Source: a virus
Virus record (IMG/VR): IMGVR_UViG_3300028376_000003
Coordinates: 1-64,000 of that record
Direction: 5' to 3' (one strand)
DNA: 64,000 bases
Position numbers and translations under genes: made by a program. The stretch's first letter is position 1, and the number at the start of each line of letters is the position of its first letter. Of this stretch, positions 36 to 53,841 are shown piece after piece. A model generated the notes under the pieces. The model had not been told where the DNA came from. It worked only from the letters and a program-made list of their open reading frames with translations, and did not search any database.

Positions 36-416
36 ATGAAGCACCTAAAAACATTTGAAAGTTTTGACCTTGGAAGATTTTCAGAAGAAGATGAAAACGA
101 ATGGATGGAAGATAGTGAAAATAACGAAGAGGGTGAAGAATCAGAACTAGAGGATGAACTTATGGATGATCAGTACTCAGATGAAGGTGAGGAAGATTTA
201 AATGACGAGAAAAGAGAAGAAATTAAAAAGAAGTTAAGTGATAAAGTAGTTGAATCTTTAACAGATAAACAAAAGAAGTTACCCAAGAAATTAAAGGCAG
301 AAATCATTAAAAAAGATGAAGATGAGTATTTAACTGCTAAACAAAAAAAATTACCAATACATTTGAAAGATTCTATAATCAAGAAAGCTAAGAAAAATAA
401 AAAAGATAAAAAATAA
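36..416 (+). CDS. Small acidic/basic protein with MKHLKTFESF leader (putative internal head protein)
   Basis: Shared N-terminal leader; D/E-rich first half, K-rich second half with LTxKQKKLP twice; AATATATA at 1-8. Confidence 0.6.
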   Translation: MKHLKTFESFDLGRFSEEDENEWMEDSENNEEGEESELEDELMDDQYSDEGEEDLNDEKREEIKKKLSDKVVESLTDKQKKLPKKLKAEIIKKDEDEYLTAKQKKLPIHLKDSIIKKAKKNKKDKK

Positions 417-441
417 AAAATGCCCTCTAAGGGCATTTTTT
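415..441. terminator. Bidirectional intrinsic terminator
   Basis: AAAAAATGCCC-TCTAA-GGGCATTTTTT between convergent genes. Confidence 0.85.
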
Positions 442-2101
442 ATTTAACATTTATTGTTTTTATCGCATTTTGAAACCAATGTGGTAAGAATTTGCTAGAA
501 TATCTAATCACGTCTCCAAAAGAGGAATCTATTATTATAGTATCTCCATAATCTAACTTAGACCTAACTATTCTACCACAAGCTTGTTGTAGAAGTGCTG
601 ATGTCATCCATGAATACCAATCAGAGTTTTGCTTTTGTCTTAGTTTATTCTTTTTAGATGCCAATGATGGGTATGGTATTTTAGCAATTATCTGAAACCT
701 AGCATCATCATTATCAAACGAAACACCAGTACCAACAGATGGTGAAACTAATACAGTTGGTTCTTTTGATTCTTTGTGCATTTTAAGCATTTCATCCTTA
801 TTTGACGAGTCATGGAATATAAGTCTTGGATTTTCAATACTTTCTTGTATCCATCTTTGTAATTCAAAAGAATTTGTATGTATTATTCCTTTCTTACCTT
901 TATATTTATTAAGTATTTTTTTAATATAAGGTATGTAATTTTTAAAAGTTTGTTCTTTATTTTTAAATGACATTTTACCAAGTGGCATATAAAATATTGG
1001 CCTTGATTTAACATTGAATGGTGAAGGTATATTATAGTATGTAGCTCTTTTAACATCCAATCCATTTAGGTTGCAAAACAGTTCTTTATTTAAAATTGTC
1101 CCTGACATCAAAAACACCATATCATATTGACTAAATATGTATTTATCAAGGTAATCGTAAGCCCAGACAGGCTCTAATGATAATTCTCTCTTTTTAGTCT
1201 TCTCATTAAAAATTGCTTCAACTACCCAGTTATCAGGATTTATTTTATATTCTTTTAAAAAAAGTTCTATCTTTATAGCCAATTGTTTAAGATCTGTTAT
1301 TAAGTTCATTAATTTAACATCTGGGTTTTTATTACTGTTAAGAACTTTATCTAGTCTAAGATTTCTTTTTTCTTTTTTCTGGTCTCTTTTAACAGATGAT
1401 AAGTTCATTTCCATTCCCTCAATAGTATCTACTATTTCATTACTTAGGTATTGTAGAAAATCAACATATTTTTCAATACCTTTAACATATTCTAGTTCTC
1501 TTAATAGCTCTTTTTCTCGTGAAAACTTATATCGCTTGATCATAGCATGTGTCACTTTTACAGAGATAAAACTAGACATCACATCGTCAAACTGATGGCT
1601 TTCGTCAACAATCAAAACTTTAGAATTTCTCCTTTCCATTACTTTTGTGTTGTTCATAGCATAAAGAATATAAAGGTAAAAATTACTTAAAGATATGCCA
1701 CCATTTATAAAGTTTTCTCTTGCAGATGTATAAGGACATTCTTCACACTTGGTCTTGTTAAGTTTATTAAATTCAGATCCCTGTGCACATGAACAAGCAT
1801 AACTGGCACACTCATAATTATCTTTTCCTTTTAAGTTTGCTATTGATTCGTAAGTGTCTGAATACTGATCTTGTAATATTTTAGTATTTGTTATGACATC
1901 TACTCTAGTTGCTTTATTTACATTTTTCCTATACCAGTCAGTAATCATAAATGTTAGGTGTGATTTACCAGTACCAACTGGTAAATCTAATAGGAAAAAC
2001 TTCTTCAATGGATTAGACTTATACTCCGAATCTATAAACTCCATAGTTTCTCGTTGCTCTTTCCTTGGTTTAAATTTGGTTAAGTCTTTTTTAAATGACA
2101 T
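440..2101 (-). CDS. DinG/YoaA/XPD-family SF2 helicase
   Basis: Walker A DLPVGTGKS, DESH, SGT, QQACGRIVRS; Cys cluster NYECASYACSC...KCEECPY at the Fe-S position. Confidence 0.85.
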   Translation of the reverse strand: MSFKKDLTKFKPRKEQRETMEFIDSEYKSNPLKKFFLLDLPVGTGKSHLTFMITDWYRKNVNKATRVDVITNTKILQDQYSDTYESIANLKGKDNYECASYACSCAQGSEFNKLNKTKCEECPYTSARENFINGGISLSNFYLYILYAMNNTKVMERRNSKVLIVDESHQFDDVMSSFISVKVTHAMIKRYKFSREKELLRELEYVKGIEKYVDFLQYLSNEIVDTIEGMEMNLSSVKRDQKKEKRNLRLDKVLNSNKNPDVKLMNLITDLKQLAIKIELFLKEYKINPDNWVVEAIFNEKTKKRELSLEPVWAYDYLDKYIFSQYDMVFLMSGTILNKELFCNLNGLDVKRATYYNIPSPFNVKSRPIFYMPLGKMSFKNKEQTFKNYIPYIKKILNKYKGKKGIIHTNSFELQRWIQESIENPRLIFHDSSNKDEMLKMHKESKEPTVLVSPSVGTGVSFDNDDARFQIIAKIPYPSLASKKNKLRQKQNSDWYSWMTSALLQQACGRIVRSKLDYGDTIIIDSSFGDVIRYSSKFLPHWFQNAIKTINVK

Positions 2102-2118
2102 ATTTTTTATTATTTATA

Positions 2119-3793: not shown

Positions 3794-5470
3794 TTATTTG
3801 TTTTTATAGTTAGATATCCTATTTTGTTTAAGTAATTCTATTGGCGATAGAGAATTTAATAAAGCACGTTTCTTAGATTCGTTAGTTTGTTTGTCAATAA
3901 TTTCTATCTTATGTAAAATGGATTCTATAAAATAGGCTTTTTTATTTTTCCTATCAAGTCGGTTTAGTCCATCGTCTTGGTAGACTAGTTCTGACTCTGC
4001 CATATCTTCTCCTATTGAAACTTCAAATCTAGGATCAAATCCCCACCTATCTCTCATATCTTGTATAGTAAAAGCAAGTTGGTCTTTAGTAAATTCACTT
4101 CTACTATCCCAATATGGTAGAATTACTGCACAGTATGGCTTTACCCATTTAGACAAATCATTATTATTTATCAAGCCTTTTCTGATATTACTTCTATCCA
4201 TTTTATGAAGTCTAGTAGAACGACCAACGTTTTGTATTATTTTTGCCCTAGTTGGCATTTTGCCTTGTAAAAACATAACACCAGTTATACCTGGTACATT
4301 TATACCTTCGCTAAATATATCATACTGTAGTATAATTACTTTTTCATCATCTTTTATCTTTTGTATCTTATCCACAAATTCATCTCTACTCTTAATCCAT
4401 TCATTATTTATAGCATGGTTGCATTCTTTATCTTTGTTGTATGATGCACCAGCACATATAGTGACATCAGGCATAATTTCAGTTAGTACTTTATGCATAT
4501 CCCACATTCTGGGTACAGACTCACACCTAATTAATATTTTGGGTGATATGGTTTTTGGTTCGTTAGAATTCTTCTTTAACCATTCTTTATGTGATTTGAA
4601 TGTATCTTTTACAAACTTAGATTTATTTTCAATAGAGTCGTAGTTTTTATCCTCCAATATCTCGGAAGGTAGTGATATATGTATAATTGGCGTTGATATA
4701 TATGATTTCTGAATACATTTTTTGAAAGGAACTTGGTAGATGTCACCAAATATGTCCTTGTTGTTCATTAGGAATATTTCTGATGACTCATCCTCTTTTA
4801 TAAGTTCCTTGTCAACATCTTTTGGAGTGGCAGTGAAGAAGAAACGCCTCTTAGTATTTATTATTTCATAGGACTTTTTAAAATCAGAGTCTTCTTTTTC
4901 AGATGCTAATATATGAGCCTCGTCACAATATATAATATCTAGGTCTATGTCTTTTAATTTATTAAGGCTATTATAGGTTGATATAATAACTGTTTTAAAG
5001 CCATTATAGTCATTATCTCTAACTATCTGATTTATCTCTCCTGTGCTTAAAGATGATCTAAATATTCTATCTACTGTAAGCCTAGAACTTATATCTTGTG
5101 TTGTATTATAATCGAATAGTGAGTTATTAAAATTTCTAGCTAGTACTTTATCTTTTTGTAAGACTTTATTAATATCAAGCGACATAGATCCAACTGTTAG
5201 AAACTTTACTTTGCCTATTAGTTTTAACTCACAAAAAAAGTCTATCAAATCCTTTAGGTGTTGGTTATTTAAACTAAGACGATGGCTTGCTATTGCAACT
5301 TTTGTATCTCTTGTCTTTATCAACCTCCAAAGTATGTGCAAAATCATAACATAACCCTTTCCAACACCAGTAGGTACTCTGAATTGGTGTCTTGTATTAT
5401 TCTGTAAGAGTTTAAACATTTCCCTTTGATCATCATTAAGTGTTAATAGTATTTCTTTTATATCTCTCAT
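3794..5470 (-). CDS. SF2 DEAH helicase/ATPase, restriction (ResIII/Type ISP) type
   Basis: PTGVGKG, STYNSL, DEAH, TATPK, SEGINVPG, IIQNVGRSTR. Confidence 0.85.
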   Translation of the reverse strand: MRDIKEILLTLNDDQREMFKLLQNNTRHQFRVPTGVGKGYVMILHILWRLIKTRDTKVAIASHRLSLNNQHLKDLIDFFCELKLIGKVKFLTVGSMSLDINKVLQKDKVLARNFNNSLFDYNTTQDISSRLTVDRIFRSSLSTGEINQIVRDNDYNGFKTVIISTYNSLNKLKDIDLDIIYCDEAHILASEKEDSDFKKSYEIINTKRRFFFTATPKDVDKELIKEDESSEIFLMNNKDIFGDIYQVPFKKCIQKSYISTPIIHISLPSEILEDKNYDSIENKSKFVKDTFKSHKEWLKKNSNEPKTISPKILIRCESVPRMWDMHKVLTEIMPDVTICAGASYNKDKECNHAINNEWIKSRDEFVDKIQKIKDDEKVIILQYDIFSEGINVPGITGVMFLQGKMPTRAKIIQNVGRSTRLHKMDRSNIRKGLINNNDLSKWVKPYCAVILPYWDSRSEFTKDQLAFTIQDMRDRWGFDPRFEVSIGEDMAESELVYQDDGLNRLDRKNKKAYFIESILHKIEIIDKQTNESKKRALLNSLSPIELLKQNRISNYKNK

Positions 5471-6159
5471 ATTTTATAGCTATAATTCTTTTTGGAATAC
5501 ATCTCAGTTAGTCTATCAGTTTCCATACTTTTTATGCTTTCATAAACAACCTCTTCATATGAATCCCAAAATGCTTGGTTGTTATCAATTAGCTTACATA
5601 TAGATTCTTGATTTATTATTCGGTAAAGACCATTGAATACTTGTGAGTTTGTATACCAGTGGAGACCTGCACAGTTTGTAAATATAACCATAGAGTCTTT
5701 CCTAGCATAGTCAACATTGAAATCTGTTATGCTTTTAAGACCAAATTGTTTTACATCTCTCTCTTTGAGTTCATACGTTGGATTATTTCTAAACTTTACT
5801 TGTACAGTACATGGACCACCTTCAATATTCTTACCATATCCGTCTACCCCATTATCATCTTCTGCTGGTACTGGTAAGTAGTCATATACACCTATTCTAT
5901 TGTCTTTGCCGTAAATTATGAAGAACACCTCTGCAAATATTTCAAATAAATCCCCTGCAAACTTCATAGTACCTAGTTTTAGAGCTTCTTCTATTTCTAA
6001 ATCACTATATCCATACTCTAATGAAGATTTACTAATTAAGCTTATTTGTTTACAAATATTTGAAAAATTACCAGCAGATGCCATCATTGAGAAGTATTGT
6101 CCAAAATCTTTCTGAACAATATTGTAAAAAGCTTCATGTTTTATTATATTATCTTTCAT
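5467..6159 (-). CDS. Mrr-like PD-(D/E)xK endonuclease
   Basis: GDLFEIFAE...DNGVDG...VQVKF; stop overlaps the helicase start (ATGA). Confidence 0.7.
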   Translation of the reverse strand: MKDNIIKHEAFYNIVQKDFGQYFSMMASAGNFSNICKQISLISKSSLEYGYSDLEIEEALKLGTMKFAGDLFEIFAEVFFIIYGKDNRIGVYDYLPVPAEDDNGVDGYGKNIEGGPCTVQVKFRNNPTYELKERDVKQFGLKSITDFNVDYARKDSMVIFTNCAGLHWYTNSQVFNGLYRIINQESICKLIDNNQAFWDSYEEVVYESIKSMETDRLTEMYSKKNYSYKI

Positions 6160-7933
6160 AAGTAAATTTTAGTGATCCTATATCCCATATTCTATAATGG
6201 TGTTGTTCGTGCATTATGTCAACTTCAGTTTTATTTATATCATATCCATTCGAAACTAATATGTCTTTTCTAAAGTTGAACCTATTCTTTCTATTATAAT
6301 CTATTATATAGAAGTAATTTGATATTGTTTTGTTTAAATACTTGAAATTTAACTTTTTGTATAAATTACCCTCGCTCCAACGATAGTCAGCATAGCTTAG
6401 AATATAATTGGGATTGTATTTTTTTAAAAAATACTTAAATAATTTTGATGCACCACCCATTATAGAAAATCCTCTTTTGTTACAGAACCTAAGAAGTTCA
6501 TAATAGTCTTTTTTGCTCTTCTGTCCTAAATTCTTTCTAAGAGAACCAAATGTTATAAGCGATACTAATTCATCCTCATAGAATAATCCTATCTTTACTT
6601 TAGATCCAACAAATCCTTGTAGATGGTTATCGTTTAAAAATGTTCTAATTAGACTATTGTCCTTTATTTCTCGTATATCACATTTCCTTGCACCAATTTT
6701 TTTAGACTTCCCATACAAGTTAATTAATCTATATTTTATTATTTCTTTTTTATCTTTCCACTCATCGCTGAATATTATAACATCAAAGTCTTCCTTGGTC
6801 ATTTTATCTGAGCTAAATATTTCGCTATATTTTATGATATCACAATATTTTATCTTTAATTTTTTAGATGTTATGACATCATTTAATAATATTGCAGTAT
6901 TGTCCATGCTTCTAATAAACATAAATAGCTCAGTTATATTTGAGTTGTTTTCTGCCTTTTCGAATATATATTTAAAATCTTTTATATGTATAACTATCTC
7001 TTGGTTATCACTATCAAGGCAGATACATGTTTTTTTGTTTCTTTTTACAAGCTTATACTTTTCTTTTTTATAGTAGAAATACTCATTTTTATTTATCAGA
7101 AACTTGTTTTGTTTAATATTGTCAGAATCATTCTTATATTTAAAATAATACCTAGTGGGGTCTTTGATATCGCCTCTGCAACACTTAGATATTATAGACT
7201 CATTTATGTTAGTTTCTAGTGATGCAGATTTGACTGAATCAAATAGATTTATATAATTCATATCTAGGTCAAACATTTCAACTTCTTTATTAAATACTTG
7301 ACAAGCCTTTCTTATACTCTCATTTGAAACCTTATTTGCTCTGTGTTTTTTAAGTTTAGCTTTTACATCATCACTATGTGTCTTTCCATACATAGGGTGG
7401 TTATTTCCACTTATTAAATTAGAATGGTTGTCTTTGGTTTCTTCACTATGTTTCTTGCCATAAAAACCATTTCCCTTTCCCTTTTGCATGTCTGACATTT
7501 TGTTTAAAATTTCTTTTTTATGATTCCACTTTAGATTCTTAGCTAAATAGGTTTTTGATATTTTATTTTTTGTTATTTGAGAAGGTTTACTACTAAGCCT
7601 ACCATCACCACCATCAGTTAAATTTATTAATGTACCAGCTGATTTGTCTCTTCTTCCAATAACCTTAATATATTCCTTTTCATACAGAATAGCATCTTCG
7701 TTAGATAATTCTATTTTTATTTTAAAACTTATAATCTCAATACCTTCTTCTTTGAGCTTTGATATCTTGTTTCTTTTAAAGGGGGATTTATCATGTAGTG
7801 TTTCTTTTATTCTATTACCAATCCCCTTACCTATGTAAAAGGGTTCATAATTGAAAGTTATATTTTTATAAGCATAGTCACCAGGTTTAGACGAATCTAA
7901 TAGTGCATAAACATAGTAATTATCTTTCATCAT
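6149..7933 (-). CDS. Free-standing homing endonuclease: GIY-YIG-like domain, NUMOD3/NUMOD1-type DNA-binding repeats, C-terminal Hef-like domain
   Basis: YYVYAL...FYIGKG...R; FYGKKHSEETK and MYGKTHSDDVK; FDSVKSAS...ISKCC; C-terminal FLNDNHLQG...ELLRFC...GGASKL...SYADYRWSEG. Confidence 0.75.
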   Translation of the reverse strand: MMKDNYYVYALLDSSKPGDYAYKNITFNYEPFYIGKGIGNRIKETLHDKSPFKRNKISKLKEEGIEIISFKIKIELSNEDAILYEKEYIKVIGRRDKSAGTLINLTDGGDGRLSSKPSQITKNKISKTYLAKNLKWNHKKEILNKMSDMQKGKGNGFYGKKHSEETKDNHSNLISGNNHPMYGKTHSDDVKAKLKKHRANKVSNESIRKACQVFNKEVEMFDLDMNYINLFDSVKSASLETNINESIISKCCRGDIKDPTRYYFKYKNDSDNIKQNKFLINKNEYFYYKKEKYKLVKRNKKTCICLDSDNQEIVIHIKDFKYIFEKAENNSNITELFMFIRSMDNTAILLNDVITSKKLKIKYCDIIKYSEIFSSDKMTKEDFDVIIFSDEWKDKKEIIKYRLINLYGKSKKIGARKCDIREIKDNSLIRTFLNDNHLQGFVGSKVKIGLFYEDELVSLITFGSLRKNLGQKSKKDYYELLRFCNKRGFSIMGGASKLFKYFLKKYNPNYILSYADYRWSEGNLYKKLNFKYLNKTISNYFYIIDYNRKNRFNFRKDILVSNGYDINKTEVDIMHEQHHYRIWDIGSLKFTYER

Positions 7934-7971
7934 CTGAATTATTTACTTATATATTATATGACTTCGCCTAC

Positions 7972-9498
7972 CTATATTTCAGATTCTAGCCTAGATATCT
8001 TATTAGTAAGGCGTTTAAGTTCTTCTTTTTTCTGCATCATAATTTTTTTATTCTTCTTTCTATCTGCATATACATCTTCTAACATTCTAAGTGTTGGTGA
8101 TAAACGCTTGTTAAACACTGTTCCATTGGCACACACGACATGATTTACACTATCTATTGGTTTTTCGTTGGTACATCTTGTTTTATCATTTGGTTTTTGG
8201 ATACCAACGAAGTTTTCTGGTGATATGAAAAATTGCCTTTGTGTTGTTGGATATAGAGAAGCAAAATCATAACAAACAACCCACTGATTAAGCCCCACAA
8301 CAGGATCTCTAACCCATCCACCTTTTATTGTGGACTGTACAGGTCCTCTATCTTCTTTAAACAAAACAGTATTATCTTGTTCCCTGAATCTGTTTCTAAG
8401 GACACCTTCTGTTATTGCTAATGATGCTAACGAGTTGTTCATATGAGATATAACATCCACAATTCTTATTCTTGATAATGATGATATAGCAAATATTATT
8501 GATATATAATTTCTAGATTCGTGTATTTTTTGTACTAAGACTGAATCAACTGCATTATAATACATAAAAGTTTCGAAGTCATCTTCATATAGCTTTTGTA
8601 AAGAACCATTGTATTTTATTTTCTCCACATCAACTAGCTTACTAGCTACAAAATCTAGAGAAGAACTTTCTTTAACTTTGATAGATGTGTCTGCTATTTC
8701 ATATAGTTGCATATAGTCAAATACCATTCTATGTGCAGGTAGTTCAAATTCAGCACCCCATTGTTTAGTTATTTTATTAGTAAGTGACGATACTTTAGGA
8801 TCTATGACATATTCTTTTCCGTTAATTGTTTTAGAAAGTTTTCTAGATCTATTTACTAGGTATAACCAGTCATACTTTAAAAAGTTCCAACCAGTTAAGA
8901 CTGGCATTTTTGGAATCATTTTATGAAAGAAGTTATACATCATATCAAACTCGTCATCGTATTTAACATATCTTAATTTGTATTCAACACCAAATTTTTC
9001 AAAATACTTGTTAGTGTTGTTTCTTATACGATCTTGCATGGCTTTAGGCATATCTTTAAGACCTAATAGGATAATTTTATCATCGTATACAATTGATATT
9101 GATAAGACTTTTGTTGCTGCTCCTTCTTTTACTAGATTTTCGTCATTATCATATACATCTGCTGCTTCTGGAAATCCATCTACAATTTCTGTCTCAATGT
9201 CAATAAAGAATATTTTAGGAGTATTGAATGCAAATATTTCATCCTTTTCTTCTTCTGGGAGAGCATCTAAAAATTCATATACAGTGTATCTATCGGGATA
9301 TGATACCTCTACTTGTTTAACTCTCTTATCATCCCACGATTTGTACTTTGGGTGTTGGTACGGGTCATCATCTTGACAAGTCTCATACTTCATTGGATTA
9401 TCCCAATTATAGTATTTTAATTTTATATCACCTGATTTATCAACATAACTAACAACTAATTTCTTTTTGTGTTTCAGATATTGTGTTTCTACTAGCAT
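7972..9498 (-). CDS. Family B DNA polymerase, N-terminal part (exonuclease plus motif A); gp43A-like split subunit
   Basis: ExoI FIDIETE, ExoII TGWNFLKYD, ExoIII YNAVDS, motif A YDFASLYP; ends before KxxxNSxYG and YGDTDS; ATG 9498 preferred because a promoter lies at 9520-9547. Confidence 0.85.
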   Translation of the reverse strand: MLVETQYLKHKKKLVVSYVDKSGDIKLKYYNWDNPMKYETCQDDDPYQHPKYKSWDDKRVKQVEVSYPDRYTVYEFLDALPEEEKDEIFAFNTPKIFFIDIETEIVDGFPEAADVYDNDENLVKEGAATKVLSISIVYDDKIILLGLKDMPKAMQDRIRNNTNKYFEKFGVEYKLRYVKYDDEFDMMYNFFHKMIPKMPVLTGWNFLKYDWLYLVNRSRKLSKTINGKEYVIDPKVSSLTNKITKQWGAEFELPAHRMVFDYMQLYEIADTSIKVKESSSLDFVASKLVDVEKIKYNGSLQKLYEDDFETFMYYNAVDSVLVQKIHESRNYISIIFAISSLSRIRIVDVISHMNNSLASLAITEGVLRNRFREQDNTVLFKEDRGPVQSTIKGGWVRDPVVGLNQWVVCYDFASLYPTTQRQFFISPENFVGIQKPNDKTRCTNEKPIDSVNHVVCANGTVFNKRLSPTLRMLEDVYADRKKNKKIMMQKKEELKRLTNKISRLESEI

Positions 9499-9564
9499 AA
9501 CTAAATTTTTTATATATCTCTTATAGTAGAAGTAAACCAAAAAGTTATAAATTATTTTAAAAAT

Positions 9565-9991: not shown

Positions 9992-10058
9992 ACAATATTT
10001 TATTTTGTTTTGTTTTTATAATGTATATATTAAATAAAAAACTCTTTTTTTACCTTTT

Positions 10059-41812: not shown

Positions 41813-41825
41813 GTACTATATATAA

Positions 41826-43957: not shown

Positions 43958-46900
43958 ATGTGGGAATATAACAAAATAGAAGATAAATGGTTTAGTAAGA
44001 AAGATACTTTAATTCATGACAATTATGAATTTTTAAAACAAGAACAAGAAAGTGTTAGGTTTTATTCAAATTGTCTAAGTGGTGCTACTTATATACCATT
44101 TAATGATGAAGATAATATATATGATATACTATCAAATAGAAGATATAAGACATGGTATATTGATCCAAGTGTTTCTGATTATGTTAGCACATTAGTACCA
44201 CCTAGGTATCCCATGCCTATAAATAGGGATACTGCATATGAATTTTATACAAAGAATTTATCAGAATATGGACTTACTCTAAAAAACCTTTTCACACCAG
44301 AGAAAATAATAGGAGAATCTTTTAATAGCTTCATATATGTTGACTTGGCAACAACAGATGATATACTAGACTTAAGTGCAAATCTTGGAGATACTAAAAT
44401 AGATGGTGTTAGAGTTTTAGAAGGACATAGAGTACTTGTAAAAGACCAAAAGAAAACTATTATATTACAAATAACAACAAATCCAGATGATTTCTTCGAA
44501 GGAAATTATACTGTAGTAGATACATTGGGTACTAATACTACTTATGAGTATTTTGATGAAAGGAATGGTATATATTTGGTAAAAAATGATAGGCTTGTTA
44601 AAGAAGATGATTTAGACGATTATCAGAAGTGTATTAGATATAGTGTAAGTGTTAAATTAGGTTTAGTGAATAAAGATAAACAGTTTCATCTGTCTAGGTT
44701 ATCTAATGGATATTATCCAACAACTAGATTTAATGAGCCTATTGAATTTGTTCAAAAAGAAAATAAACTACTTAGAAATCAATTAGATTATAATAACATA
44801 GCCGATTTAAATTATTACGACCTTTTAAAACACGGAACACAATCGTATGAGTTTAACGAAACCAATTACTCAATACCAGAGAGGATAATATCTGTTGGAG
44901 AATTTGGATCTATTATAAATAATCAAGACGGTAGAAGCAATATAATAAGAAATAAGTTTAAAGTAGATTTGAAAAGTATATCACAGACTACATTATATTA
45001 TTGGATAGTGGGTAATAAGGGTAATCTATTAAGAACTAGGAAACACGATTTTGAAGTAGATAAAATAGAGTTAATAAAATCTAATACACAAGTCGTGAGT
45101 AATTTAAATTCTATATCATTCTTTAATGATCTTAATGGTGTTTTGGTTGGTGATAATAATACAATATTTATAACATCTAATGGTGGCAAGGATTGGATAC
45201 CATTTGATGTTAAGGCTTTTCAATCATTTAATTTTAACAAAGTTATCTTTTATAATACAAATAAGATATTTATAGGTGGGGATAATGGCGTGTTTTTAGA
45301 GATTAAGAACGATGGTGATAAATGGACGGCATTCAAGAGGAGGATATCCAAATTTTTAGATGAAGATGATGAGTTTTTATTAGTTGATAATATAAATGAT
45401 ATAATCATAACAACCGTTGATAATTGGAATCCATTTTATACATCGTTCAATGCTTCTGAGTCTAATATAACTATAACTGATAGTCCGAAGGAACTAGTTA
45501 TAATAGTTACCAATGATAGTAATATAATATTTTATGATATAAATGAATCTATACCACTTGATACTGATTTTTTATTTATGGAGTTTAAGGACAAAAACTA
45601 CGGGGATATAGTAAATATTGAGAGAAAGGAAGGTACTAATACTTTTTATTTTGTTGGTTTTAATCAAGAAACAGATAGTAATGGTATATTTTCATTCAGT
45701 TTAGATGATTTCAATTCTATAGGAGTTGGAACACGCTTTGATAATAGGTCTATAACTGCAACTAATGCTAACTTTGTTTCTGAACTATATCCAAATAAGT
45801 TATTTGACTTTGGGGGTAACGAAATAGTTATATGTGGTAATAATTCTTTACTTAGTAGTTCTGATTATAATACCTTAGTATTTGAGGATATAGATGATAC
45901 ATTCTTGAACAAGTTAAAGTCAAAGATGTTATTCCTAGATTATGATATTGCTAGTAAATTAAACTTTTTCACAGACGATGGTGAATACAGACTACCAGAA
46001 TCTATAGAAATAAGCTATGATTCTATCAGTGGTAGTATAGAGTTTTCGTCCTTTGAAAATGAGACTAACTGGATAGATTATTGGAAAGATAGTACATCAA
46101 CATTCGAACACTATACTAACTCACCAATGACAGACACAACCAAAGTGGAATTTTCGTCTAAATTTACTAAAACAGAAGAAAATGTACAAAGGTTTATAAA
46201 AGGGATTTCTACATCAGATGATGATTTATTAAAATTATCACCAAGTCTATACAATGATAAATTTAGTAGATTTAGTTCAATTTCACAACCACAAGTGTCT
46301 AGACCACTTGATTCTGCTATAAACATATATCTTGGTAGTTATTTAATGGTTATAAAATATAGTAATTTAAGTGATATACCAAGTAAGGGCGATATCATAA
46401 ATGTAGAAACAAATTTTCTAAATGAAAACTTTATGGTTAATAAAACTGTTGTGTTTTTAGATAATACATTTGTATATCTATATACAGAGTTTAACCAATC
46501 TATTATTAATATGTTTAAAAATTCAGAGATTAAAATAACTAATTTAAACAGATTTAATTCTAGAGATTCACTTGTATCTAATTTTAAAAAACATCCATTA
46601 TATAAGGGATATGATATAATACTTAACAATAATGGTGTAATAAATTTTAGACCTAAATTCAATAACATAACATCATATTATAATATGACTACATCACTTA
46701 ATCTTAATGATGGTGAGGAAACATTTACAATGGAATATAAAAATTCATTTTTGAAATTTGGTTACACACCAACTTATAATTTATTAGACTATTTAGAGTC
46801 TATTAATGATATAAATACAGTAAATCCTAGATTCTTCCCAACAAAGGAATATTACTCTATGCCCGTTTATAGTAACATACCAGTCTCTGCAAATGATATA

Positions 46901-49060
46901 AATTCTATTTATATTGACTATAATATAAAGAAGAATAATAAATTAGTTTTTGGCTCTAATTTAGAATTTGAATGGAAGAGTATTTTTTTAAATACCTTTG
47001 TTAATATAAATTTATACCAAGACGAAGATTTATCTTCAAATGAACAGATGTTGGTTTTTGATAAATATTATGAACAAAGCACGGATACGTATATTATAGA
47101 GTTCCACAAAGAATTTATTTACCCAAATGAAAACCAAGTTAATCCACTAACCTCAATTGATATAGAGTCAAGAAGATCACTAGAGGTTATAAGTAGTGAT
47201 TTACAGTTATTGAATAATATACAAAGGTCATATTCTACTAAGAAGTATAAATCTGGGACTTTTGATTCTGGTCAGATTTGGGATGTAGAATATGAAAATC
47301 TAAATAAAAAATTAAATTTCAAAGTAAATACTGATTCCTATGCTAAAATATTATTATCAGACTTTACGACTAATAATTCTATAAGTGGTATAGTCTATAC
47401 TGATTTTAAAAATGAATTAGCACTCAATATAACTAGATTAGAGGAAAGAGTAACTGTTCCAATATTGAATACAAGTGAGTTTCAGAATAAATTATATGTT
47501 TCTTGTTCACAAAAGCACGAACTTTCAAATGGGGATGGTGTTATATTAGATTTTAATGGTGGTGATGGATCATCAGAAGAACTTAATCCTCAGTATTTTG
47601 GATATAGAGTTGTTAATGTAATAAACGAATTTGACTTAGTCACTGATATAAATTATGGAAATAGGCCTTTAATTGGAACAGATACTGGGACTGTTAGATA
47701 TATTAGGAAAGATCCCTTTTTAAATTATCAACCAACAGACCTTATAGATGTTGGTGTTGATAAACTAGGTAAGGTGTCTATAGAATTGAATCCACAGAAC
47801 ACCACACTAGTTGGTAGTTTATATTCTCTATCAAACGTAGATTATAATAGATTCAGATTTAGATTAGTTGATGGTCTTGATGTTGAGACTTTAGCAAGAA
47901 ACTATTCATGGATTTATGAGAGTGAGATAAGCGATGCTGTTATTGGTCTTGATAATAATGGTCTAGTATGGTATAAAGGAAGATGGGAATGTGGTAGATG
48001 GTTTGGTGGTACGTGGATAAGTGGTACTTGGTTATCTGGAGATTGGTTTGATGGTATATGGAAGTCAAAAAATATAAAGGATAATTTTATAAATGTAACC
48101 ATTGATGCAAACTCTGATAACAATATTAGTTCGGTATGGAATACTGGTAGATGGTTTGGTGGTACTTGGGAAAATGGTACTTGGAATACTGGTAGATGGT
48201 ATGATGGAAAGTGGATAAACGGACAATGGTTTGACGGTCTCTGGAATGGTGGTACTTGGGAAAATGGTATATTTACAAGTGGTATATGGATAGATGGTAC
48301 TTGGAATAATGGAAGGTTTAGCACAGATAACGGACCAGCTTATTGGTTAGGTGGTACTTGGAATGGTGGAGATTTTGATAATGGAATTTGGTTTAATGGT
48401 GTTTTTGATGAAAAAAACGGTGTTGAGTCAAGATTTGGTGTTAAATCATATAATAGTAGAGCCTCTATTTGGAAGTCTGGTAAATTTATCAATGGAACCT
48501 TTCATTCTAGATTAAATATTGACACTAATGGTAATTATGATGTATCAGAAGTACATAAATACTCTATATGGGAGACAGGAACTTGGTTTAGTGGGGGATT
48601 TTATGGTGGCGTTGCTTATAATATAGACTTTAGGTCTGGTGTGTGGTATGGTGGAATTGTAGAGGATATTAACATTGTTGGTATTAATATAGAAAATAAC
48701 TACATAACTATTGATAAGCCTTATAGTTATAATATAGGGGATCAAATAACTATTATTGCAGATAAAACATCATCTTTTAGTAGTATATCTAGAAAAATTG
48801 ATATATATAATCTAGGAACTAATGAAGAGCCTGGTATATATTCTGTTGTAAATACTATTCAAAATGAAAATACCAGTGATATATATCTTGATATAAATAT
48901 ACAAGACACTGTAAATGAACAAAACTTAGATTTTAGGTCGGTTAGTAGGTTTAGGAATGCAGATTGGAGAAGTGGTCTTTGGTTTAATGGATTATTTGAG
49001 AACGGTATATGGAAAGGTGGTGTGTGGTATGATGGTGTATTTAGTGCAGACTGGTCATAA
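43958..49060 (+). CDS. Large virion (tail/baseplate) protein with BNR/Ycf48-like propeller and Trp-Gly pentapeptide repeats
   Basis: IDGVRVLEGHRVLVKDQ...NGIY; TSNGGKDW; many GxWxx repeats near the C-terminus. Confidence 0.65.
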   Translation: MWEYNKIEDKWFSKKDTLIHDNYEFLKQEQESVRFYSNCLSGATYIPFNDEDNIYDILSNRRYKTWYIDPSVSDYVSTLVPPRYPMPINRDTAYEFYTKNLSEYGLTLKNLFTPEKIIGESFNSFIYVDLATTDDILDLSANLGDTKIDGVRVLEGHRVLVKDQKKTIILQITTNPDDFFEGNYTVVDTLGTNTTYEYFDERNGIYLVKNDRLVKEDDLDDYQKCIRYSVSVKLGLVNKDKQFHLSRLSNGYYPTTRFNEPIEFVQKENKLLRNQLDYNNIADLNYYDLLKHGTQSYEFNETNYSIPERIISVGEFGSIINNQDGRSNIIRNKFKVDLKSISQTTLYYWIVGNKGNLLRTRKHDFEVDKIELIKSNTQVVSNLNSISFFNDLNGVLVGDNNTIFITSNGGKDWIPFDVKAFQSFNFNKVIFYNTNKIFIGGDNGVFLEIKNDGDKWTAFKRRISKFLDEDDEFLLVDNINDIIITTVDNWNPFYTSFNASESNITITDSPKELVIIVTNDSNIIFYDINESIPLDTDFLFMEFKDKNYGDIVNIERKEGTNTFYFVGFNQETDSNGIFSFSLDDFNSIGVGTRFDNRSITATNANFVSELYPNKLFDFGGNEIVICGNNSLLSSSDYNTLVFEDIDDTFLNKLKSKMLFLDYDIASKLNFFTDDGEYRLPESIEISYDSISGSIEFSSFENETNWIDYWKDSTSTFEHYTNSPMTDTTKVEFSSKFTKTEENVQRFIKGISTSDDDLLKLSPSLYNDKFSRFSSISQPQVSRPLDSAINIYLGSYLMVIKYSNLSDIPSKGDIINVETNFLNENFMVNKTVVFLDNTFVYLYTEFNQSIINMFKNSEIKITNLNRFNSRDSLVSNFKKHPLYKGYDIILNNNGVINFRPKFNNITSYYNMTTSLNLNDGEETFTMEYKNSFLKFGYTPTYNLLDYLESINDINTVNPRFFPTKEYYSMPVYSNIPVSANDINSIYIDYNIKKNNKLVFGSNLEFEWKSIFLNTFVNINLYQDEDLSSNEQMLVFDKYYEQSTDTYIIEFHKEFIYPNENQVNPLTSIDIESRRSLEVISSDLQLLNNIQRSYSTKKYKSGTFDSGQIWDVEYENLNKKLNFKVNTDSYAKILLSDFTTNNSISGIVYTDFKNELALNITRLEERVTVPILNTSEFQNKLYVSCSQKHELSNGDGVILDFNGGDGSSEELNPQYFGYRVVNVINEFDLVTDINYGNRPLIGTDTGTVRYIRKDPFLNYQPTDLIDVGVDKLGKVSIELNPQNTTLVGSLYSLSNVDYNRFRFRLVDGLDVETLARNYSWIYESEISDAVIGLDNNGLVWYKGRWECGRWFGGTWISGTWLSGDWFDGIWKSKNIKDNFINVTIDANSDNNISSVWNTGRWFGGTWENGTWNTGRWYDGKWINGQWFDGLWNGGTWENGIFTSGIWIDGTWNNGRFSTDNGPAYWLGGTWNGGDFDNGIWFNGVFDEKNGVESRFGVKSYNSRASIWKSGKFINGTFHSRLNIDTNGNYDVSEVHKYSIWETGTWFSGGFYGGVAYNIDFRSGVWYGGIVEDINIVGINIENNYITIDKPYSYNIGDQITIIADKTSSFSSISRKIDIYNLGTNEEPGIYSVVNTIQNENTSDIYLDINIQDTVNEQNLDFRSVSRFRNADWRSGLWFNGLFENGIWKGGVWYDGVFSADWS

Positions 49061-49088
49061 ACTAATTTTAAAAAATAATATATAGTAT

Positions 49089-49460
49089 ATGATAAAAAAA
49101 TGGACAGACTACATAAAGGAAGACATCAAACCAGACTTTGTTGCTGAAGATGATAAGTATTTAGAATTGATTGATAAAATAAAGGATATGATAGAGATAA
49201 CTGTTGAAAACAATGGTGGTGAGTATAGTACTTTTGTAGATTCGTACAATAAATCTCCCGAAGATTTTCAAATAGAAGGACTTATTAATGATTCTGATAT
49301 ATATGATTTTTATTTAATGTATAGAAATGATATAGATGAGGTTCTTAATGATATAAAATACTTTGATGAGATACCTACTGAAAATAACTCTTTCGGGTTG
49401 TATGAATATACATTAAATGGAACTAAAAGGACGATAACGGAAATAATTAAAATGTTGTAA
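49089..49460 (+). CDS. Small acidic protein with MIKKWTDYIKE leader
   Basis: AATATATA 4 nt before the ATG. Confidence 0.6.
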   Translation: MIKKWTDYIKEDIKPDFVAEDDKYLELIDKIKDMIEITVENNGGEYSTFVDSYNKSPEDFQIEGLINDSDIYDFYLMYRNDIDEVLNDIKYFDEIPTENNSFGLYEYTLNGTKRTITEIIKML

Positions 49461-49559: not shown

Positions 49560-52244
49560 ATGGCTAAAACACCTCTTTATAAATCATTAAAACAAAATGG
49601 TACAACATTTTATGCTTTTCCTGGAGCAGCAGAAGACATAAGTGCTGCATACCAAAACAGTAATTATAAAATGTACTTTTCTAAGTATACTTTGCTTAAT
49701 CTACCAAAACAAGATACTACATCCACATCTAGTCCTAATTATTTTGACTTTGATGTGTTTTCAAAATCCACTGGTGCTAACCCACCTGCCACATATGGTG
49801 AGTCAATTGTTGAATCTCTAAGAAATTATGTTGCTAATCAAGAGGTAACTATAAGAGAGTCAAGACTCAATAATACAGAATACTATTATAATAATGAATC
49901 ATTGGAGACTACCTCTGAAAAGATATTCTGGAAATGGTGTAAAAAATTGAATATACTACAATTAGAACCAGCCTTACCAAGTGATGAATATTTTAGTAAT
50001 TTAACAGAATTTGAATCTAGGGATATAAATAATGATGAATACTTTCCAGAGTATTTGTGGAAAGAAAGAGAAATAATAGATTGGGACACAGTCACATATA
50101 GACAAACAGAAGATACAGATTTTAACTTACCACCAAGGTTAGAAATACAATTTAATGGTACGACTAATTTAATAGAAGGTGATGTTATAAACATATACAA
50201 TGTGTCTAATTCTGAAATACTAAATGAAGTAAGCCTATCTGATGCTGACACAGAGCAAGGTGTTAATACAAAAATATTAAAAAGTTTTCCTAGCACTGGT
50301 ACTGTTGGACAAAGAATAATTGTTGATTTAGAGTCTACTTTAAGTGATACATTAGAAACTACTGGTCAAGCTAGATTAGTTTATAATAGGCTTGTTCAAT
50401 ATGTTGGAGAAATAAATGGAGTATCCAATGTACAAGAAGCTAATAGGTCTTATACAGAGGTTTATGCTCATATACCAGACCACACAGGAAAGACTCCCGA
50501 TGTTTTATTCAGAACTCTATCTGATGAGAATTATAAACCAAATGTAACTTTTCCAATAATACCTAATCAGTACCAACCAGAGATAAGAGGTGCCGAACTT
50601 TTCAACTCACCAATAGTAAGTTCTAACCAAAACTACCCAGGTGGATATTTTGGACAATTTGATACACTAGATTTTACATACAGAACATCAAATGGTGATT
50701 CTCTAAGAAGGAATGGAGATTACTATGGTGTTAAGGGTGATATAAATAATCCAGTTATTGATAATACTAAAATTGACGGTGTTACTTTGGACTTTGACAC
50801 TAGTCATTATGTCAAAATGAATATACCCAACAGAACTGTTAGTAATTTTGATCAGTTTAATGCACTTAATGTTAATAACGAACCACCTAGAGATTTTGAA
50901 TTTAATGCAATTTTATGGTACTATTCAGTAGAGGATAATAATGGTAATACAACTACCAACTTATACGGTATATCATTTTTAGATAATCCTAGCAATAGCT
51001 TGAGTGGTGATAAGGATATTAAGTTCCCTGCTATTAAAAAATTAGTAGCTAATGGGGAGCAAGATGGTACATCATATGCATTTAACTTAAGTCTTAATTT
51101 TAATATAATAAATGATAACCCAACCGAAACTTATAATCCAGAAGCTATAAATTCTATGTTTAGTATGAATTTATTCAATAAAGCTATGCAATCCTTATCA
51201 TCTACTAATGATAGCTTCTTAAAGACAATTGCAGAACAATCTTTTGTTAGAGATGAACTAAATTCATTGAAAGGTCTTTTATATACACAGACTGATTTGA
51301 ATACTATAAATACAAAAATAAGTAGTTTAGAAAAGTTATTAAGTTTATATACTACGAACCAAATCGAAAACAGTAGTAGTATTGAGGTTGTTGAGATGCC
51401 TGGTAATCCCCCAACGTTTCAATTAATAAATGTTGATAATAAATACGATAAAGTAGACAATATATTATCTAGTGAATTATACACACAAGATGGTATAGTT
51501 TCAACAAGTTTATTAGTTCCTAGAAATAGAGACTTTCTTATAAATATTAAAAATGATGACAAAATACAACTAAACCTAGATAATAATGATAAACTTACTA
51601 TTATCTTAGATAAAGATTTATCACTTATGCAAACTTTAGATATTAATATTACAGGGACTGTAGAATCTACACAAAATAAAAAGCTAGATATATTTATGGT
51701 ATCAAATGCTGGATCTAATAATAATGAACAAACTGAGACACTTTTAATTGGGGGTATTAATTTACCAGTATATTATAATTCTAATACAGAACTTCCGAAT
51801 TCTTCTTATCTATGGGATGGATTTGATTTTAATATAGATTTTAGTAAACCCATAACACTTATATCAGATAACCTTATTCAACTATCATTAGAAGAAAATC
51901 CTATATTAGTGAAAAATTCTTTAAATACTGGTGATTCATTACTTCTTAATAATTTATTTTTTGGAGAGGAATCTATTTTTGATTACTCTGGTCAGTATAT
52001 TTTAAATTCAATATCTGGTAATGAAATAGTTATTGATATTAGTTCTAATAATGATTTAGTAAGTACTTATATAGGTCAATCACCATTTGTAATACATAAT
52101 CCAACTCACGTTCCACCTTCTACTTTATTGAGTAATAAACCTTATTTTTCACTAAATAAAGGTTCTAGTATAAAAGTTACTAGAGTCAGTAACTCAGATG
52201 AATTAAATGAAAGGTATCAAATTAGCATCAATAGATTAAATTAA
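49560..52244 (+). CDS. Large virion structural protein
   Basis: 894 aa, N/S/T-rich beta composition, central coiled coil, late box at 49525-49532. Confidence 0.6.
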   Translation: MAKTPLYKSLKQNGTTFYAFPGAAEDISAAYQNSNYKMYFSKYTLLNLPKQDTTSTSSPNYFDFDVFSKSTGANPPATYGESIVESLRNYVANQEVTIRESRLNNTEYYYNNESLETTSEKIFWKWCKKLNILQLEPALPSDEYFSNLTEFESRDINNDEYFPEYLWKEREIIDWDTVTYRQTEDTDFNLPPRLEIQFNGTTNLIEGDVINIYNVSNSEILNEVSLSDADTEQGVNTKILKSFPSTGTVGQRIIVDLESTLSDTLETTGQARLVYNRLVQYVGEINGVSNVQEANRSYTEVYAHIPDHTGKTPDVLFRTLSDENYKPNVTFPIIPNQYQPEIRGAELFNSPIVSSNQNYPGGYFGQFDTLDFTYRTSNGDSLRRNGDYYGVKGDINNPVIDNTKIDGVTLDFDTSHYVKMNIPNRTVSNFDQFNALNVNNEPPRDFEFNAILWYYSVEDNNGNTTTNLYGISFLDNPSNSLSGDKDIKFPAIKKLVANGEQDGTSYAFNLSLNFNIINDNPTETYNPEAINSMFSMNLFNKAMQSLSSTNDSFLKTIAEQSFVRDELNSLKGLLYTQTDLNTINTKISSLEKLLSLYTTNQIENSSSIEVVEMPGNPPTFQLINVDNKYDKVDNILSSELYTQDGIVSTSLLVPRNRDFLINIKNDDKIQLNLDNNDKLTIILDKDLSLMQTLDINITGTVESTQNKKLDIFMVSNAGSNNNEQTETLLIGGINLPVYYNSNTELPNSSYLWDGFDFNIDFSKPITLISDNLIQLSLEENPILVKNSLNTGDSLLLNNLFFGEESIFDYSGQYILNSISGNEIVIDISSNNDLVSTYIGQSPFVIHNPTHVPPSTLLSNKPYFSLNKGSSIKVTRVSNSDELNERYQISINRLN

Positions 52245-52283
52245 GTTTCTGATTTTAATATATAAATAAACAAAAGTGATATT

Positions 52284-53108
52284 ATGAGTGTATGTGGAAA
52301 TTCTTTATTTGATAATGGCTTTAATTATATAAAGCTTAATAAAAGCGACTTTGTTGCTGTTGAAGAATCTAATACTATGGAACGCCTTATGTTATCTGGG
52401 TTAAGAATACCATATACACAAATATTGAAAGGTAAAATAATACTGAAAAAAGGAGAACAGAATTATTTACTCAATCATTTAGGATTGGGTGATAATGTTA
52501 CATTTTTAGCTATGAAAGTTATCTATGACTTCAAATCTGTAATAAAAGAAGATAACTACTTAACATGGAGTCCTTACGATAATTTGGAATATGAAGGTGT
52601 TGTTTCAGAGATGATGGTACTTACTGGTAATACAACTAAACGTATACCACAATTATTTATATCAAATCCAAATGAAAAATATAGTGTTAGGTTAGAAGTT
52701 ATGTTAGCCATTATTGATGATGAATCTTCTTTCTTTGATTATAGACCAGTTGTGTATTTCACAAATATAGTAGATGTTATAAACATGGAATATATAGATG
52801 CTAATAGTCCAGATGTTGTAAAACCTTATAATACAGCTGTTGCTGATGAATTCCAATATATTGACTCTTTTATTAGTGATGTCACTAAAGGAACATTAGT
52901 TAGTAATATTGTGAATGATGTTAGAGATTCTAATAACAATTCCTTTATCTACACAGATGATAATTTTATTCTTAAAAATAACATTGGAGAAGAAATAGAT
53001 ACAATAGATTCTGCTGGTGAATATTACCTTACATTTAATATTACTGATAGTCTAGGAAATTCTTTAAAACCAGTAAAGAGTGTAAAAATAACTTTTACTG
53101 ATGATTAA
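52284..53108 (+). CDS. Putative structural protein with C-terminal Ig-like domain
   Basis: Ends GEYYLTFNITDSLGN; late box at 52257-52264. Confidence 0.55.
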   Translation: MSVCGNSLFDNGFNYIKLNKSDFVAVEESNTMERLMLSGLRIPYTQILKGKIILKKGEQNYLLNHLGLGDNVTFLAMKVIYDFKSVIKEDNYLTWSPYDNLEYEGVVSEMMVLTGNTTKRIPQLFISNPNEKYSVRLEVMLAIIDDESSFFDYRPVVYFTNIVDVINMEYIDANSPDVVKPYNTAVADEFQYIDSFISDVTKGTLVSNIVNDVRDSNNNSFIYTDDNFILKNNIGEEIDTIDSAGEYYLTFNITDSLGNSLKPVKSVKITFTDD

Positions 53109-53841
53109 AAAGTTTAACGAATATTATAAGTACAAAGGATTATCAGAATCTTTAGTACAGACAGAAATAAGTAAAGCTGGTAAAGGCGTTTTTAAGTCGT
53201 TTTTAAAGACTTTAACTGCTTTAGGTTACAAAGACATATCTCAAGACTATAAACACTCTAAGGATGGCTTTATAGCCTATTTTGAACAAGAAGAAGTAAG
53301 TTCTTTTGAGGCAAGGACTATATTTAAAAGATTTAAGTCATTAACACAGTATATCGGTTTAATTGATGGTTCTAAGGATAAATTAAAAATGTTCTTTGGT
53401 ATTAAAAATTCGGCTAAATTGGAATACGGCATATCTTATGAGGATAAACTATTACCAATAGGTAGTTTTAAATTGTCTAATTCCACTATAAAATGGGTGC
53501 TTGGTCTAGACTCCAAGTCTTCAAGTTCTTTTAAAAAACTAATTGTTAATATATCATATAATGATTTACTTACTTTTGGTAGAATAAAAGAAGATATGAG
53601 GGATTATAAGCCTGGATTCTATAGCAAAAGGTCTTATCCAACTATAAGTGATAATGTTATAACATTTGGATATAAAGGTTTTGGTGAATGGGTTAATGGT
53701 AATTTTAGTGATGAACAGTTGAAAGAATTAAAGTCTAATCTAAAAAAATGGATGTCTAATAAAAAATGGAAGAGCAAGGTAATGATTAAATTAGATACTA
53801 GTAATTTCTGGATTAACATTCATTTTAAGACAAAAAATTAA
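53101..53841 (+). CDS. Basic protein with MIKKFNEY leader
   Basis: Shared leader; overlaps the upstream stop. Confidence 0.6.
   Translation: MIKKFNEYYKYKGLSESLVQTEISKAGKGVFKSFLKTLTALGYKDISQDYKHSKDGFIAYFEQEEVSSFEARTIFKRFKSLTQYIGLIDGSKDKLKMFFGIKNSAKLEYGISYEDKLLPIGSFKLSNSTIKWVLGLDSKSSSSFKKLIVNISYNDLLTFGRIKEDMRDYKPGFYSKRSYPTISDNVITFGYKGFGEWVNGNFSDEQLKELKSNLKKWMSNKKWKSKVMIKLDTSNFWINIHFKTKN

Follow-up and report, generated by a model that had tools for sequence, protein, structure and literature searches.

A short N-terminal leader resembling the T4 capsid-targeting sequence is found on many unrelated genes of a huge-phage fragment and its relatives

The window analyzed here comprises bases 1-64000 of the 141,527-bp viral contig IMGVR_UViG_3300028376_000003 (28.7% G+C; estimated to be ~20% complete) and encodes a set of proteins starting with a common short leader, from now on referred to as the tag. 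A first-pass annotation of the window had listed 14 such leaders, all of which are present where it had placed them. Two strict patterns were used to identify tags, namely M[KR..][YH..][LIV]..[FYW] for type A and an MIKK-like start followed by aromatic-x-x-[FY] for type B, neither of which includes the Glu discussed below. N-termini were further scored in a fixed register from the Met using models trained only on LR745206, a complete relative, with a threshold of 7.9 bits representing the 99.9th percentile of 38,474 internal 11-mers of the contig. In this profile scan of N-termini across the contig, which the first-pass annotation had proposed, ten window genes exceed the threshold (range 10-26 bits), specifically those starting at 36, 9991 (−), 19035 (−), 33014, 39929 (−), 40663 (−), 41588 (−), 41812 (−), 49089 and 53101. 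Two further leaders are shifted in register, the leaders at 30522 and 32311 (−) are weak and are not counted, and the motif at 41812 (−) may be part of a fold. The genes concerned are given below together with an example of the promoter-like box found upstream of them, a slash marking the putative cut site.

36-416 (+): tagged gene, 126 aa, type A leader MKHLKTFESF, 21.6 bits; box at 12-17; very acidic body
9629-9991 (−): tagged gene, 120 aa, type A leader MKNLKTFESF, 16.2 bits; box at 10024-10029
18763-19035 (−): tagged gene, 90 aa, type B leader MIKKFKQFNEE, 17.0 bits; second gene of a unit with the box at 19443-19448
30522-30893 (+): 123-aa gene with doubtful leader MNIRRYIKYLND (MNIRRY..), no score; ATG directly after the box at 30514-30519
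30880-31473 (+): 197-aa gene with register-shifted leader MGIIKKFSDY..VSE, 3.0 bits in the fixed register; body similar to phrog_7595 (function unknown)
32018-32311 (−): 97-aa gene with doubtful leader MKKFTKVLE, no score; box at 32316-32321
33014-33472 (+): tagged gene, 152 aa, type A leader MKHLKTFNES, 25.5 bits, leucine-rich repeat (LRR)-like body; box at 32994-32999
36480-37718 (−): tagged gene, 412 aa, leader MFIKKYIEFIKE/A; box at 37737-37742
39135-39929, 39932-40663 and 40665-41588 (−): three tandem LRR-like paralogues, each starting MKHIK[PT]YKIFE[SN], 23-26 bits
41591-41812 (−): 73-aa gene at the head of the LRR unit, leader MKYILEYKSF, 12.1 bits; box at 41817-41822, 4 nt before the ATG
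49079-49084 (+): example of the (A/T)ATATATA promoter-like box, which heads tagged units and, in relatives, head genes
49089-49460 (+): tagged gene, 123 aa, type B leader MIKKWTDYIKE/D followed by an acidic linker, 13.5 bits; box at 49079-49084, 4 nt before the ATG
53101-53841 (+): tagged gene, 246 aa, type B leader MIKKFNEYYKYKGLSE/S, 10.2 bits; second gene of a unit with the box at 52259-52264

The register-shifted leader of the 412-aa protein (MFIKKY.., shifted by one or two residues) is the window's closest to the T4 sequence MKTYQEFIAE/A, and the body behind it gave no lead in Pfam, PHROG or the ESM Atlas. Generally, searches of the window's tagged proteins against Pfam and PHROGs only returned weak LRR matches, as for 33014-33472, and PHROGs of unknown function. 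Orthologues in LR745206 often carry a corresponding leader: the weak orthologue of 36-416 has the same one, that of 9629-9991 begins MKYLKTFENY, the syntenic orthologue of 49089-49460 begins MIKKYLQFIKE/A and has a longer acidic linker, and the orthologue of 53101-53841 keeps both leader and body with ~76 extra residues in between. The 90-aa protein at 18763-19035 is a clade core gene with 292 homologues and a conserved leader. The orthologue of 41591-41812 begins MKFLNEYKSF, and the MKYILEYKSF motif of this gene may belong to the folded body. The LR745206 homologue of the LRR-like paralogues (19905-20588) is without a leader.

Judged by sequence similarity, the window is a piece of a T4-related megaphage, an assignment based on the similarity of its relatives and on the T4 core genes of LR745206. 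The 894-aa protein encoded at 49560-52244 shares 60% identity with proteins of the uncultured huge phages LR745206 (634,780 bp) and LR756502 and 33-39% identity with proteins of LR756504 and the 735-kb LR756501. Core genes common to LR745206 and T4, as identified by BLASTP, include DNA polymerase, helicase, clamp loader, gp46/47 and UvsX as well as the large terminase, sheath, portal, gp4 and capsid protein. The window itself encodes two helicases, a methylase, a split family-B polymerase, ThyA, SbcC and PhoH. The first-pass annotation had stated that no replication enzyme carries the leader, and the helicases, methylase, polymerase part, ThyA, SbcC and PhoH of the window are indeed all without it.

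The strict patterns match 22 of the 174 open reading frames (ORFs) of the contig, about one gene in eight, compared with 2 of 714 internal Met positions, and 125 of the 965 ORFs of LR745206 (13%), compared with 16 of 3646 internal Met positions. Several of these internal matches are true starts overrun by the ORF caller, so that the real number of tags is higher. When residues were shuffled within N-terminal columns, the contig yielded 1.9 +/- 1.3 matches, and column shuffling of LR745206, which keeps the position-specific composition, yielded 10.9 compared with 119 observed. In T4 (272 ORFs) and Flavobacterium phage MaF61 (198 ORFs), these patterns match a single ORF each, setting the control rate at internal Met positions and in these two phages at ~0.3-0.5%. 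MaF61 is the nearest cultured phage checked, and neither the tag system nor an S77 match was found in it. Within the first 400 kb of two further relatives, 32 of 610 (LR756504) and 27 of 570 ORFs (LR756501) are matched. It is virtually certain that the tag is real. A calcineurin-like phosphoesterase (32366-32968, +) starting MKHFKQ.. was considered as a tagged gene and rejected, as its N-terminus passes straight into the first β-strand and metal-binding motif; this look-alike calls for caution with counts made by pattern alone. In LR745206, an 806-aa ORF (172579-174999) contains a perfect internal type A motif (..KILKTFESF..) at residue 386 without a Met. This ORF may result from the fusion of two tagged genes, or the motif may mark a site of internal processing.

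Three recurrent forms of the tag can be distinguished. Subtype A1 reads M-K-[Y/H]-[L/I]-[K/R]-x-[F/Y]-[N/E]-E-S, subtype A2 reads M-K-[Y/H]-[L/I]-K-x-Y-K-[I/L]-F-E-S and subtype B reads M-I-K-K-[W/Y/F]-x-x-[F/Y]-I-x-E-S. A first Glu falls on residues 8-12 in 83% of tagged and 24% of untagged proteins, and a hydrophobic-x-E triplet in this interval is present in 72% and 18%, respectively. The residue following the tag Glu is Ser in 58, Asn in 18 and Ala in 11 of 145 cases, and Asp and Glu are enriched in the 30 residues after the tag. A Glu followed by a small residue at the end of the tag resembles the sites of T4-type prohead proteases and represents a putative cut site.

Synonymous codons at conserved tag positions track genome-wide usage, as illustrated by Lys2 with 54 AAA and 19 AAG codons against 53.9 and 19.1 expected. 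As synonymous codon use follows genome-wide proportions, selection on the tag acts on the peptide and not on RNA, and an RNA-level explanation of the leader was rejected on codon usage. This bears directly on the alternative that the leader is no address at all and instead a general N-terminal feature of an AT-rich genome without Shine-Dalgarno sites, related to translation start, avoidance of mRNA structure or a degron. The upstream regions of the contig's genes are in fact A/T-rich and without Shine-Dalgarno sites, positions 2-6 show an excess of Lys and Ile across all ORFs, and many mRNAs driven by the box would be nearly leaderless, the box ending 4-6 nt before the ATG, so that the first codons could matter for initiation. 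Such a feature would not account for the conservation of aromatic, Glu and Ser residues and for exchanges of the F/Y, L/I and K/R kind, which are features of a peptide, nor for the excess over composition-preserving column shuffling, and replication genes and most other genes as well as the Flavobacterium phage are without the motif. A role in translation or stability is largely excluded by the codon data, and we consider this alternative very unlikely.

The proteins behind the tag are highly diverse. BLASTP clustering after removal of the first 16 residues divided the 125 tagged proteins of LR745206 into 119 clusters and the 22 of the contig into 17, the sole multi-member cluster of the contig comprising the LRR-like proteins, i.e. 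the three tandem paralogues, 33014-33472 and two genes at 140015-141423 of the contig. The first-pass view that the protein bodies are unrelated apart from LRR paralogues is thus borne out. Pfam matches were obtained for ~13 of 124 tagged proteins, every one to another family, namely PolyA_pol, NFACT-R, Peptidase_M15_4, RNaseH-like, NUDIX, 2'-5' RNA ligase/Acb1-like, RNase_T, zinc protease, Toprim, MazE-like and DUF5856. Paralogy as the source of the common leader was rejected based on this clustering and Pfam diversity. Between orthologues of the contig and LR745206, tag and body are kept and the length of the linker varies, and one member of the 292-member family of the 90-aa protein (18763-19035) has 24 extra residues between the two. 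The AlphaFold model of this 90-aa protein shows residues 1-33 at pLDDT < 50 without secondary structure, with the fold starting from residue ~37. Taken as a whole, it is very likely that the tag represents a portable N-terminal address or processing peptide. Homologues in relatives could be identified for 6% of type A cargo, 27% of untagged genes and 29% of type B proteins. Type B marks conserved proteins, and the large group marked by type A consists of small, acidic proteins that turn over fast and are of unknown function. Some of this type A cargo reaches extreme acidity, with long Glu/Asp runs directly after the tag (window 36-416, +; LR756504 47163, 62693, 312206 and 330120); it recurs in the form of a small family and calls to mind DNA-mimic anti-restriction proteins.

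Tagged genes are preferentially located in units headed by the TATATA promoter-like box. ATATATA is found within 50 nt upstream of genes 224 times in LR745206 against 19 expected (~ten-fold) and 52 times in the contig against 5.7 expected. Its spacing to the ATG falls into two classes of 4-6 nt and 19-23 nt, the former of which would give leaderless or nearly leaderless mRNAs; window examples of this class are the boxes at 19443-19448, 32316-32321, 41817-41822 and 49079-49084, alongside ~95 LR745206 genes. Overall, 88% of tagged genes and 54% of untagged genes lie in box-headed units (p 3.6e-14). The corresponding values for the contig are 95% (20/21) and 65% (p 0.004), in line with the first-pass claim that the leader genes lie behind the box or in operons behind it. 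The box was not found before the window's helicases, methylase and polymerase, and in the relatives it is located upstream of the portal, protease-scaffold and capsid genes.

The tag closely resembles the T4 capsid-targeting sequence (CTS). T4 IPII and IPIII start MKTYQEFIAE/A and IPI starts MKTFKEF.., and when the type B model, trained on megaphage tags only, was run over the 272 T4 ORFs, IPIII ranked 3rd and IPII 6th. The likeness to the T4 signal proposed in the first-pass annotation thus holds for type B. Like the CTS of IPII, IPIII and IPI, which is removed by gp21, the tag is N-terminal, ~10 residues long and basic at first, followed by aromatic-x-x-aromatic-I-x-E and a small residue; both are found on unrelated, fast-evolving bodies in a lineage with gp20-, gp21- and gp23-type head genes. 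That T4 uses this signal and that the T-even internal proteins behind it are diverse is textbook knowledge (PMC3012670, PMC5694885). The systems differ in scale, with three internal proteins as well as Alt on the T4 side compared with 22 tagged proteins on the fragment and at least 125 in LR745206. Further, at least three leader subtypes are found here, the Glu spacing of type A differs, the post-Glu residue is mostly Ser or Asn instead of Ala, and the cargo is acidic instead of basic. No Alt-like ADP-ribosyltransferase was found in LR745206.

Genes for T4-type head assembly are found in all three relatives analyzed (LR745206, LR756504 and LR756501). In LR745206, Pfam identifies a T4-type portal (PF07230, 2.7e-57) as well as a capsid protein of the gp23 type (PF07068, 1.8e-26), and between their genes is that of a 707-aa protein whose first ~190 residues resemble T4 gp21. 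Another ORF, located between portal and protease, is not a core protein and instead an HNH-type endonuclease. The protease-scaffold fusion is found at the following positions.

LR745206, 198546-200669 (L003:8547-10670): protease-scaffold fusion, protease domain at L003:8547-9116
LR756501, 73913-76336: protease-scaffold fusion
LR756504, 185342-187636: protease-scaffold fusion

Alignment of a profile of the three protease sequences with T4 gp21 using hhalign gave a probability of 89% and an E value of 2.4e-6 over 148 columns, with GEFDHP at the catalytic His aligned to T4 GELNHP and VSSRAAG at the Ser aligned to T4 VSSRGLG (motifs GE(F/L)xHP and VSSR(A/G)xG). The relatives' protein is thus predicted to have the gp21 fold and catalytic His and Ser and to be Peptidase S77-like. 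The scaffold region following the protease consists of 13-14 tandem 14-residue repeats, ..NI.YSEY[IVL]AE/N.D., kept in all three phages, an acidic stretch and a conserved C-terminal domain. By analogy, the repeats look like a coiled-coil scaffold meant for cutting after every Glu, similar to the T4 gp22 scaffold, which is degraded (PMC5694885).

This scaffold and the acidity of the cargo also fit a different role for the tag, namely transient loading into the prohead core. As for T4 gp67, gp68 and gp22, tagged proteins would then be assembly or space-filling parts that are broken up and expelled prior to or during DNA packaging, and nothing would be injected. Acidic composition and acidic linkers recall the acidic tail of T4 gp67, cleavage of T4 core proteins is followed by their exit from the head (PMC5694885), and the relatives' scaffold appears built for cuts every 14 residues. 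Yet the tagged proteins include enzymes (NUDIX, nucleotidyltransferase, peptidoglycan peptidase, nucleases, 2H/Acb1-like), and type A cargo turns over quickly among relatives, both of which fit effectors better than assembly parts; core components would be expected to be conserved. We regard transient core loading as decidedly unlikely.

A possible origin of the tag is indicated by the capsid protein. The relatives' capsid protein keeps a gp23-like propeptide, starting KKWSPVLE (KKWxP[VIL]LE) compared with T4 NKWKPLLE and ending in the strongly conserved WMSEYAE.H..NE/N, where the cleavage position is predicted. When LR745206 was searched with its own capsid protein, small proteins carrying pieces of the capsid N-terminus were identified. 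In the 84-aa type A2 tagged protein encoded at 93266-93520, the tag aligns over the capsid WMSEYAEF helix (BLASTP E 9e-10), the tag-final E/N falls on the capsid ..INE/N junction and the remainder is homologous to the capsid N-arm. In T4, the gp23 propeptide ends FGSFLTE/A, comparable to the internal-protein signal YQEFIAE/A. Based on this alignment and on the T4 parallel, the tag appears to copy the final helix of the capsid propeptide, cut site included, in a portable form. The T4 gp23 (65 residues, ending FLTE/A) and gp24 (10 residues) propeptides thus have a counterpart here in the gp23-type propeptide of the megaphage capsid and in the one protein whose tag overlies its last helix and junction, the difference being that tags are far shorter than the capsid propeptide and are found on non-capsid proteins. 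A 157-aa mini-protein (LR745206 291407-291880) carries the whole propeptide, and further pieces of the capsid N-terminus are encoded at LR745206 554784-555284 and LR756504 233552-234145. These small proteins contain either the whole propeptide and N-arm, as in 291407-291880, or a GMG.V..QP..LAG.T motif and may be capsid-lattice mimics or inner-surface binders.

We hypothesize that the tags are portable N-terminal addresses descended from, or mimicking, the T4-type CTS and the end of the capsid propeptide, which direct proteins to the prohead and are removed by a gp21-like protease; we assign this reading a probability of about 50%. Tagged genes would be transcribed from the same TATATA-box (late-type) promoters as head genes, and the 9-12-residue amphipathic tag of a new protein would dock on the scaffold core of the assembling prohead. 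The gp21-like prohead protease would then cut after the tag-final Glu (hydrophobic-x-E, then S/N/A), leaving the freed cargo enclosed in the head, and part of this cargo may enter the next host along with the DNA. We infer the docking, cutting, enclosure and injection steps. Given the close resemblance of the tag to the T4 head-loading signal, the phage and its relatives probably address more than 100 unrelated, fast-changing proteins to the capsid. The first-pass suggestion that any gene gaining the leader is loaded is an extrapolation.

A number of observations weigh against this reading. The contig (141.5 kb, ~20% complete) contains no head genes and no S77 protease match, so that the link to the head rests on relatives at ~60% identity and below. 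In these relatives, the protease domain scores below the Pfam S77 cut-off (20.1 and 16.8 bits against 27), and its best PDB sequence match, the gp21 structure 5JBL, is weak (E 0.22). The scaffold repeats are not recovered by the type B model at >= 9 bits, and the idea that these repeats would score as tags was not borne out; all they have in common with tags is the [FY][ILV]xE core. Contig N-termini show no enrichment of the exact T4-like signature [FYW][ILV]xE (4 against 2.6 expected); at N-termini in relatives it is clearly enriched (39 against 7.8 in LR756501). The type A model fails to retrieve T4 IPI. Approximately a quarter of type A tags have an aromatic residue at P2 and no hydrophobic residue at P3 (..TFE/S), and a single cutting rule can thus not fit all tags. 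The TATATA box is also found upstream of ThyA, PhoH and a ribonucleotide reductase-like gene; its putative late status, which we infer by analogy with T4 TATAAATA, is for this reason tentative. Tagged proteins are acidic, with median pI values of 4.8 and 4.6 against 5.8 and ~60% below pI 5. T4 internal proteins that stay with the DNA are basic, and the strongly acidic cargo thus weakens the step of retention with the DNA and injection. Further, one gene in eight would be a very large load for one capsid. Because of the acidity of the cargo and the size of this load, injection is less likely than prohead addressing with tag removal.

The top T4 match of the type B model also counts against an exclusive link to the head. 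It is gp61.1 (NC_000866 18966-19130), an uncharacterized 54-aa protein that starts MKTFKEFIKED, almost perfectly resembling a capsid-targeting leader, and is encoded beside the primase gene. We know of no report of gp61.1 being packaged, and its top rank suggests that the motif is perhaps not exclusive to packaged proteins. Alternatively, the tag may indeed address or dock proteins, only not to the capsid interior: a different part of the virion, an intracellular assembly made by the phage, a shared chaperone or a membrane surface could be the destination, and the T4 likeness of the tag would then reflect just a common amphipathic-helix design. The tag is short, basic-hydrophobic and amphipathic, as are many binding helices, two type B genes flank the conserved 894-aa protein and not head genes, and the acidic cargo and the motif on gp61.1 also fit this alternative. 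Simple docking would nevertheless leave the terminal Glu and small residue unexplained, as well as the overlap of the tag with the capsid propeptide helix and cleavage-type junction in the 84-aa protein; tagged genes adjoin the capsid gene in LR745206, and the absence of a hydrophobic stretch or lipobox together with the acidic linkers after the tag is unlike membrane anchors. Another destination is considered unlikely.

The proposed prohead addressing can be compared with two further kinds of systems. Encapsulin cargo-loading peptides and bacterial microcompartment encapsulation peptides are short portable helices that send unrelated cargo inside a shell, and encapsulin shells have the HK97 fold. 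In most cases they bind directly to the shell protein, frequently they are C-terminal, and they stay on the cargo; they are similar to the tag as portable addresses, with no homology between them. The giant phages phiKZ, 201phi2-1 and SPN3US use a gp21-type protease cutting after Glu ((A/S/G)-x-E), and the N-terminal pieces of many head-internal proteins of phiKZ-like giants are thought to target the prohead (PMC5694885, PMC10052503). Their propeptides, carried by ejection and inner-body proteins, are 80-130 residues long without a common short motif, and ~8 of ~50 head proteins are processed, whereas here one short common tag is found on more than 100 proteins, in a clade representing another branch (Bacteroidota-type, with T4-core genes). 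No paper describing a short common tag on ~13% of genes was found in the literature on huge and jumbo phages.

Some other genes of the window should be mentioned. The 894-aa protein at 49560-52244 had no match in Pfam, PHROG or PDB, and its assignment as a sheath protein was dropped since T4 gp18 matches a different LR745206 gene. The family-B DNA polymerase seems split over 5467-9540 (−), with the N-terminal exonuclease part at 7972-9540, a 594-aa GIY-YIG/NUMOD homing-endonuclease-like ORF at 6149-7933 and a 230-aa ORF at 5467-6159; the homologue of the N-terminal part in LR745206 is likewise short (513 aa). The PhoH-like ATPase gene (41856-43631, −) contains a LAGLIDADG homing-endonuclease/intein-like insert (PF14528, PF05204) that interrupts it, and terminase/DnaC-like PHROGs are matched by its N-terminal part. 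Three giant proteins of 1933, 1700 and 1492 aa, encoded at 24651-30452 (−), 43958-49060 (+) and 58806-63284 (−), carry CBM_5_12 (carbohydrate-binding), BNR-like and BACON domains and are likely fibre or adhesin proteins, consistent with a Bacteroidota-type host.

A more far-reaching scenario is that, in this megaphage clade (460-735 kb), a CTS-derived code loads each capsid with more than 100 different small proteins and enzymes, mostly acidic and exchanged rapidly, and delivers them with the DNA, forming a virion-borne effector arsenal whose membership changes by tag gain and loss and whose tag derives from the last helix of the capsid propeptide. We consider this scenario possible and put it forward only tentatively. 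If true, the arsenal would comprise ~13% of the proteome, and its domains would include nuclease and antitoxin-like ones as well as those of RNA repair and of nucleotide-signal degradation. Should the tags load heads, huge phages would bring a large pre-made protein toolkit into the cell, which would help explain the purpose of much of their "dark" gene content and how they withstand host defences until transcription begins. The tag would then also serve as a simple sequence rule for predicting virion cargo from metagenomes and, in the way the T4 signal is already used, as a means of packaging foreign proteins into non-model phages. Even with another destination, a 10-residue code on one gene in eight is a major organizing feature of these genomes.

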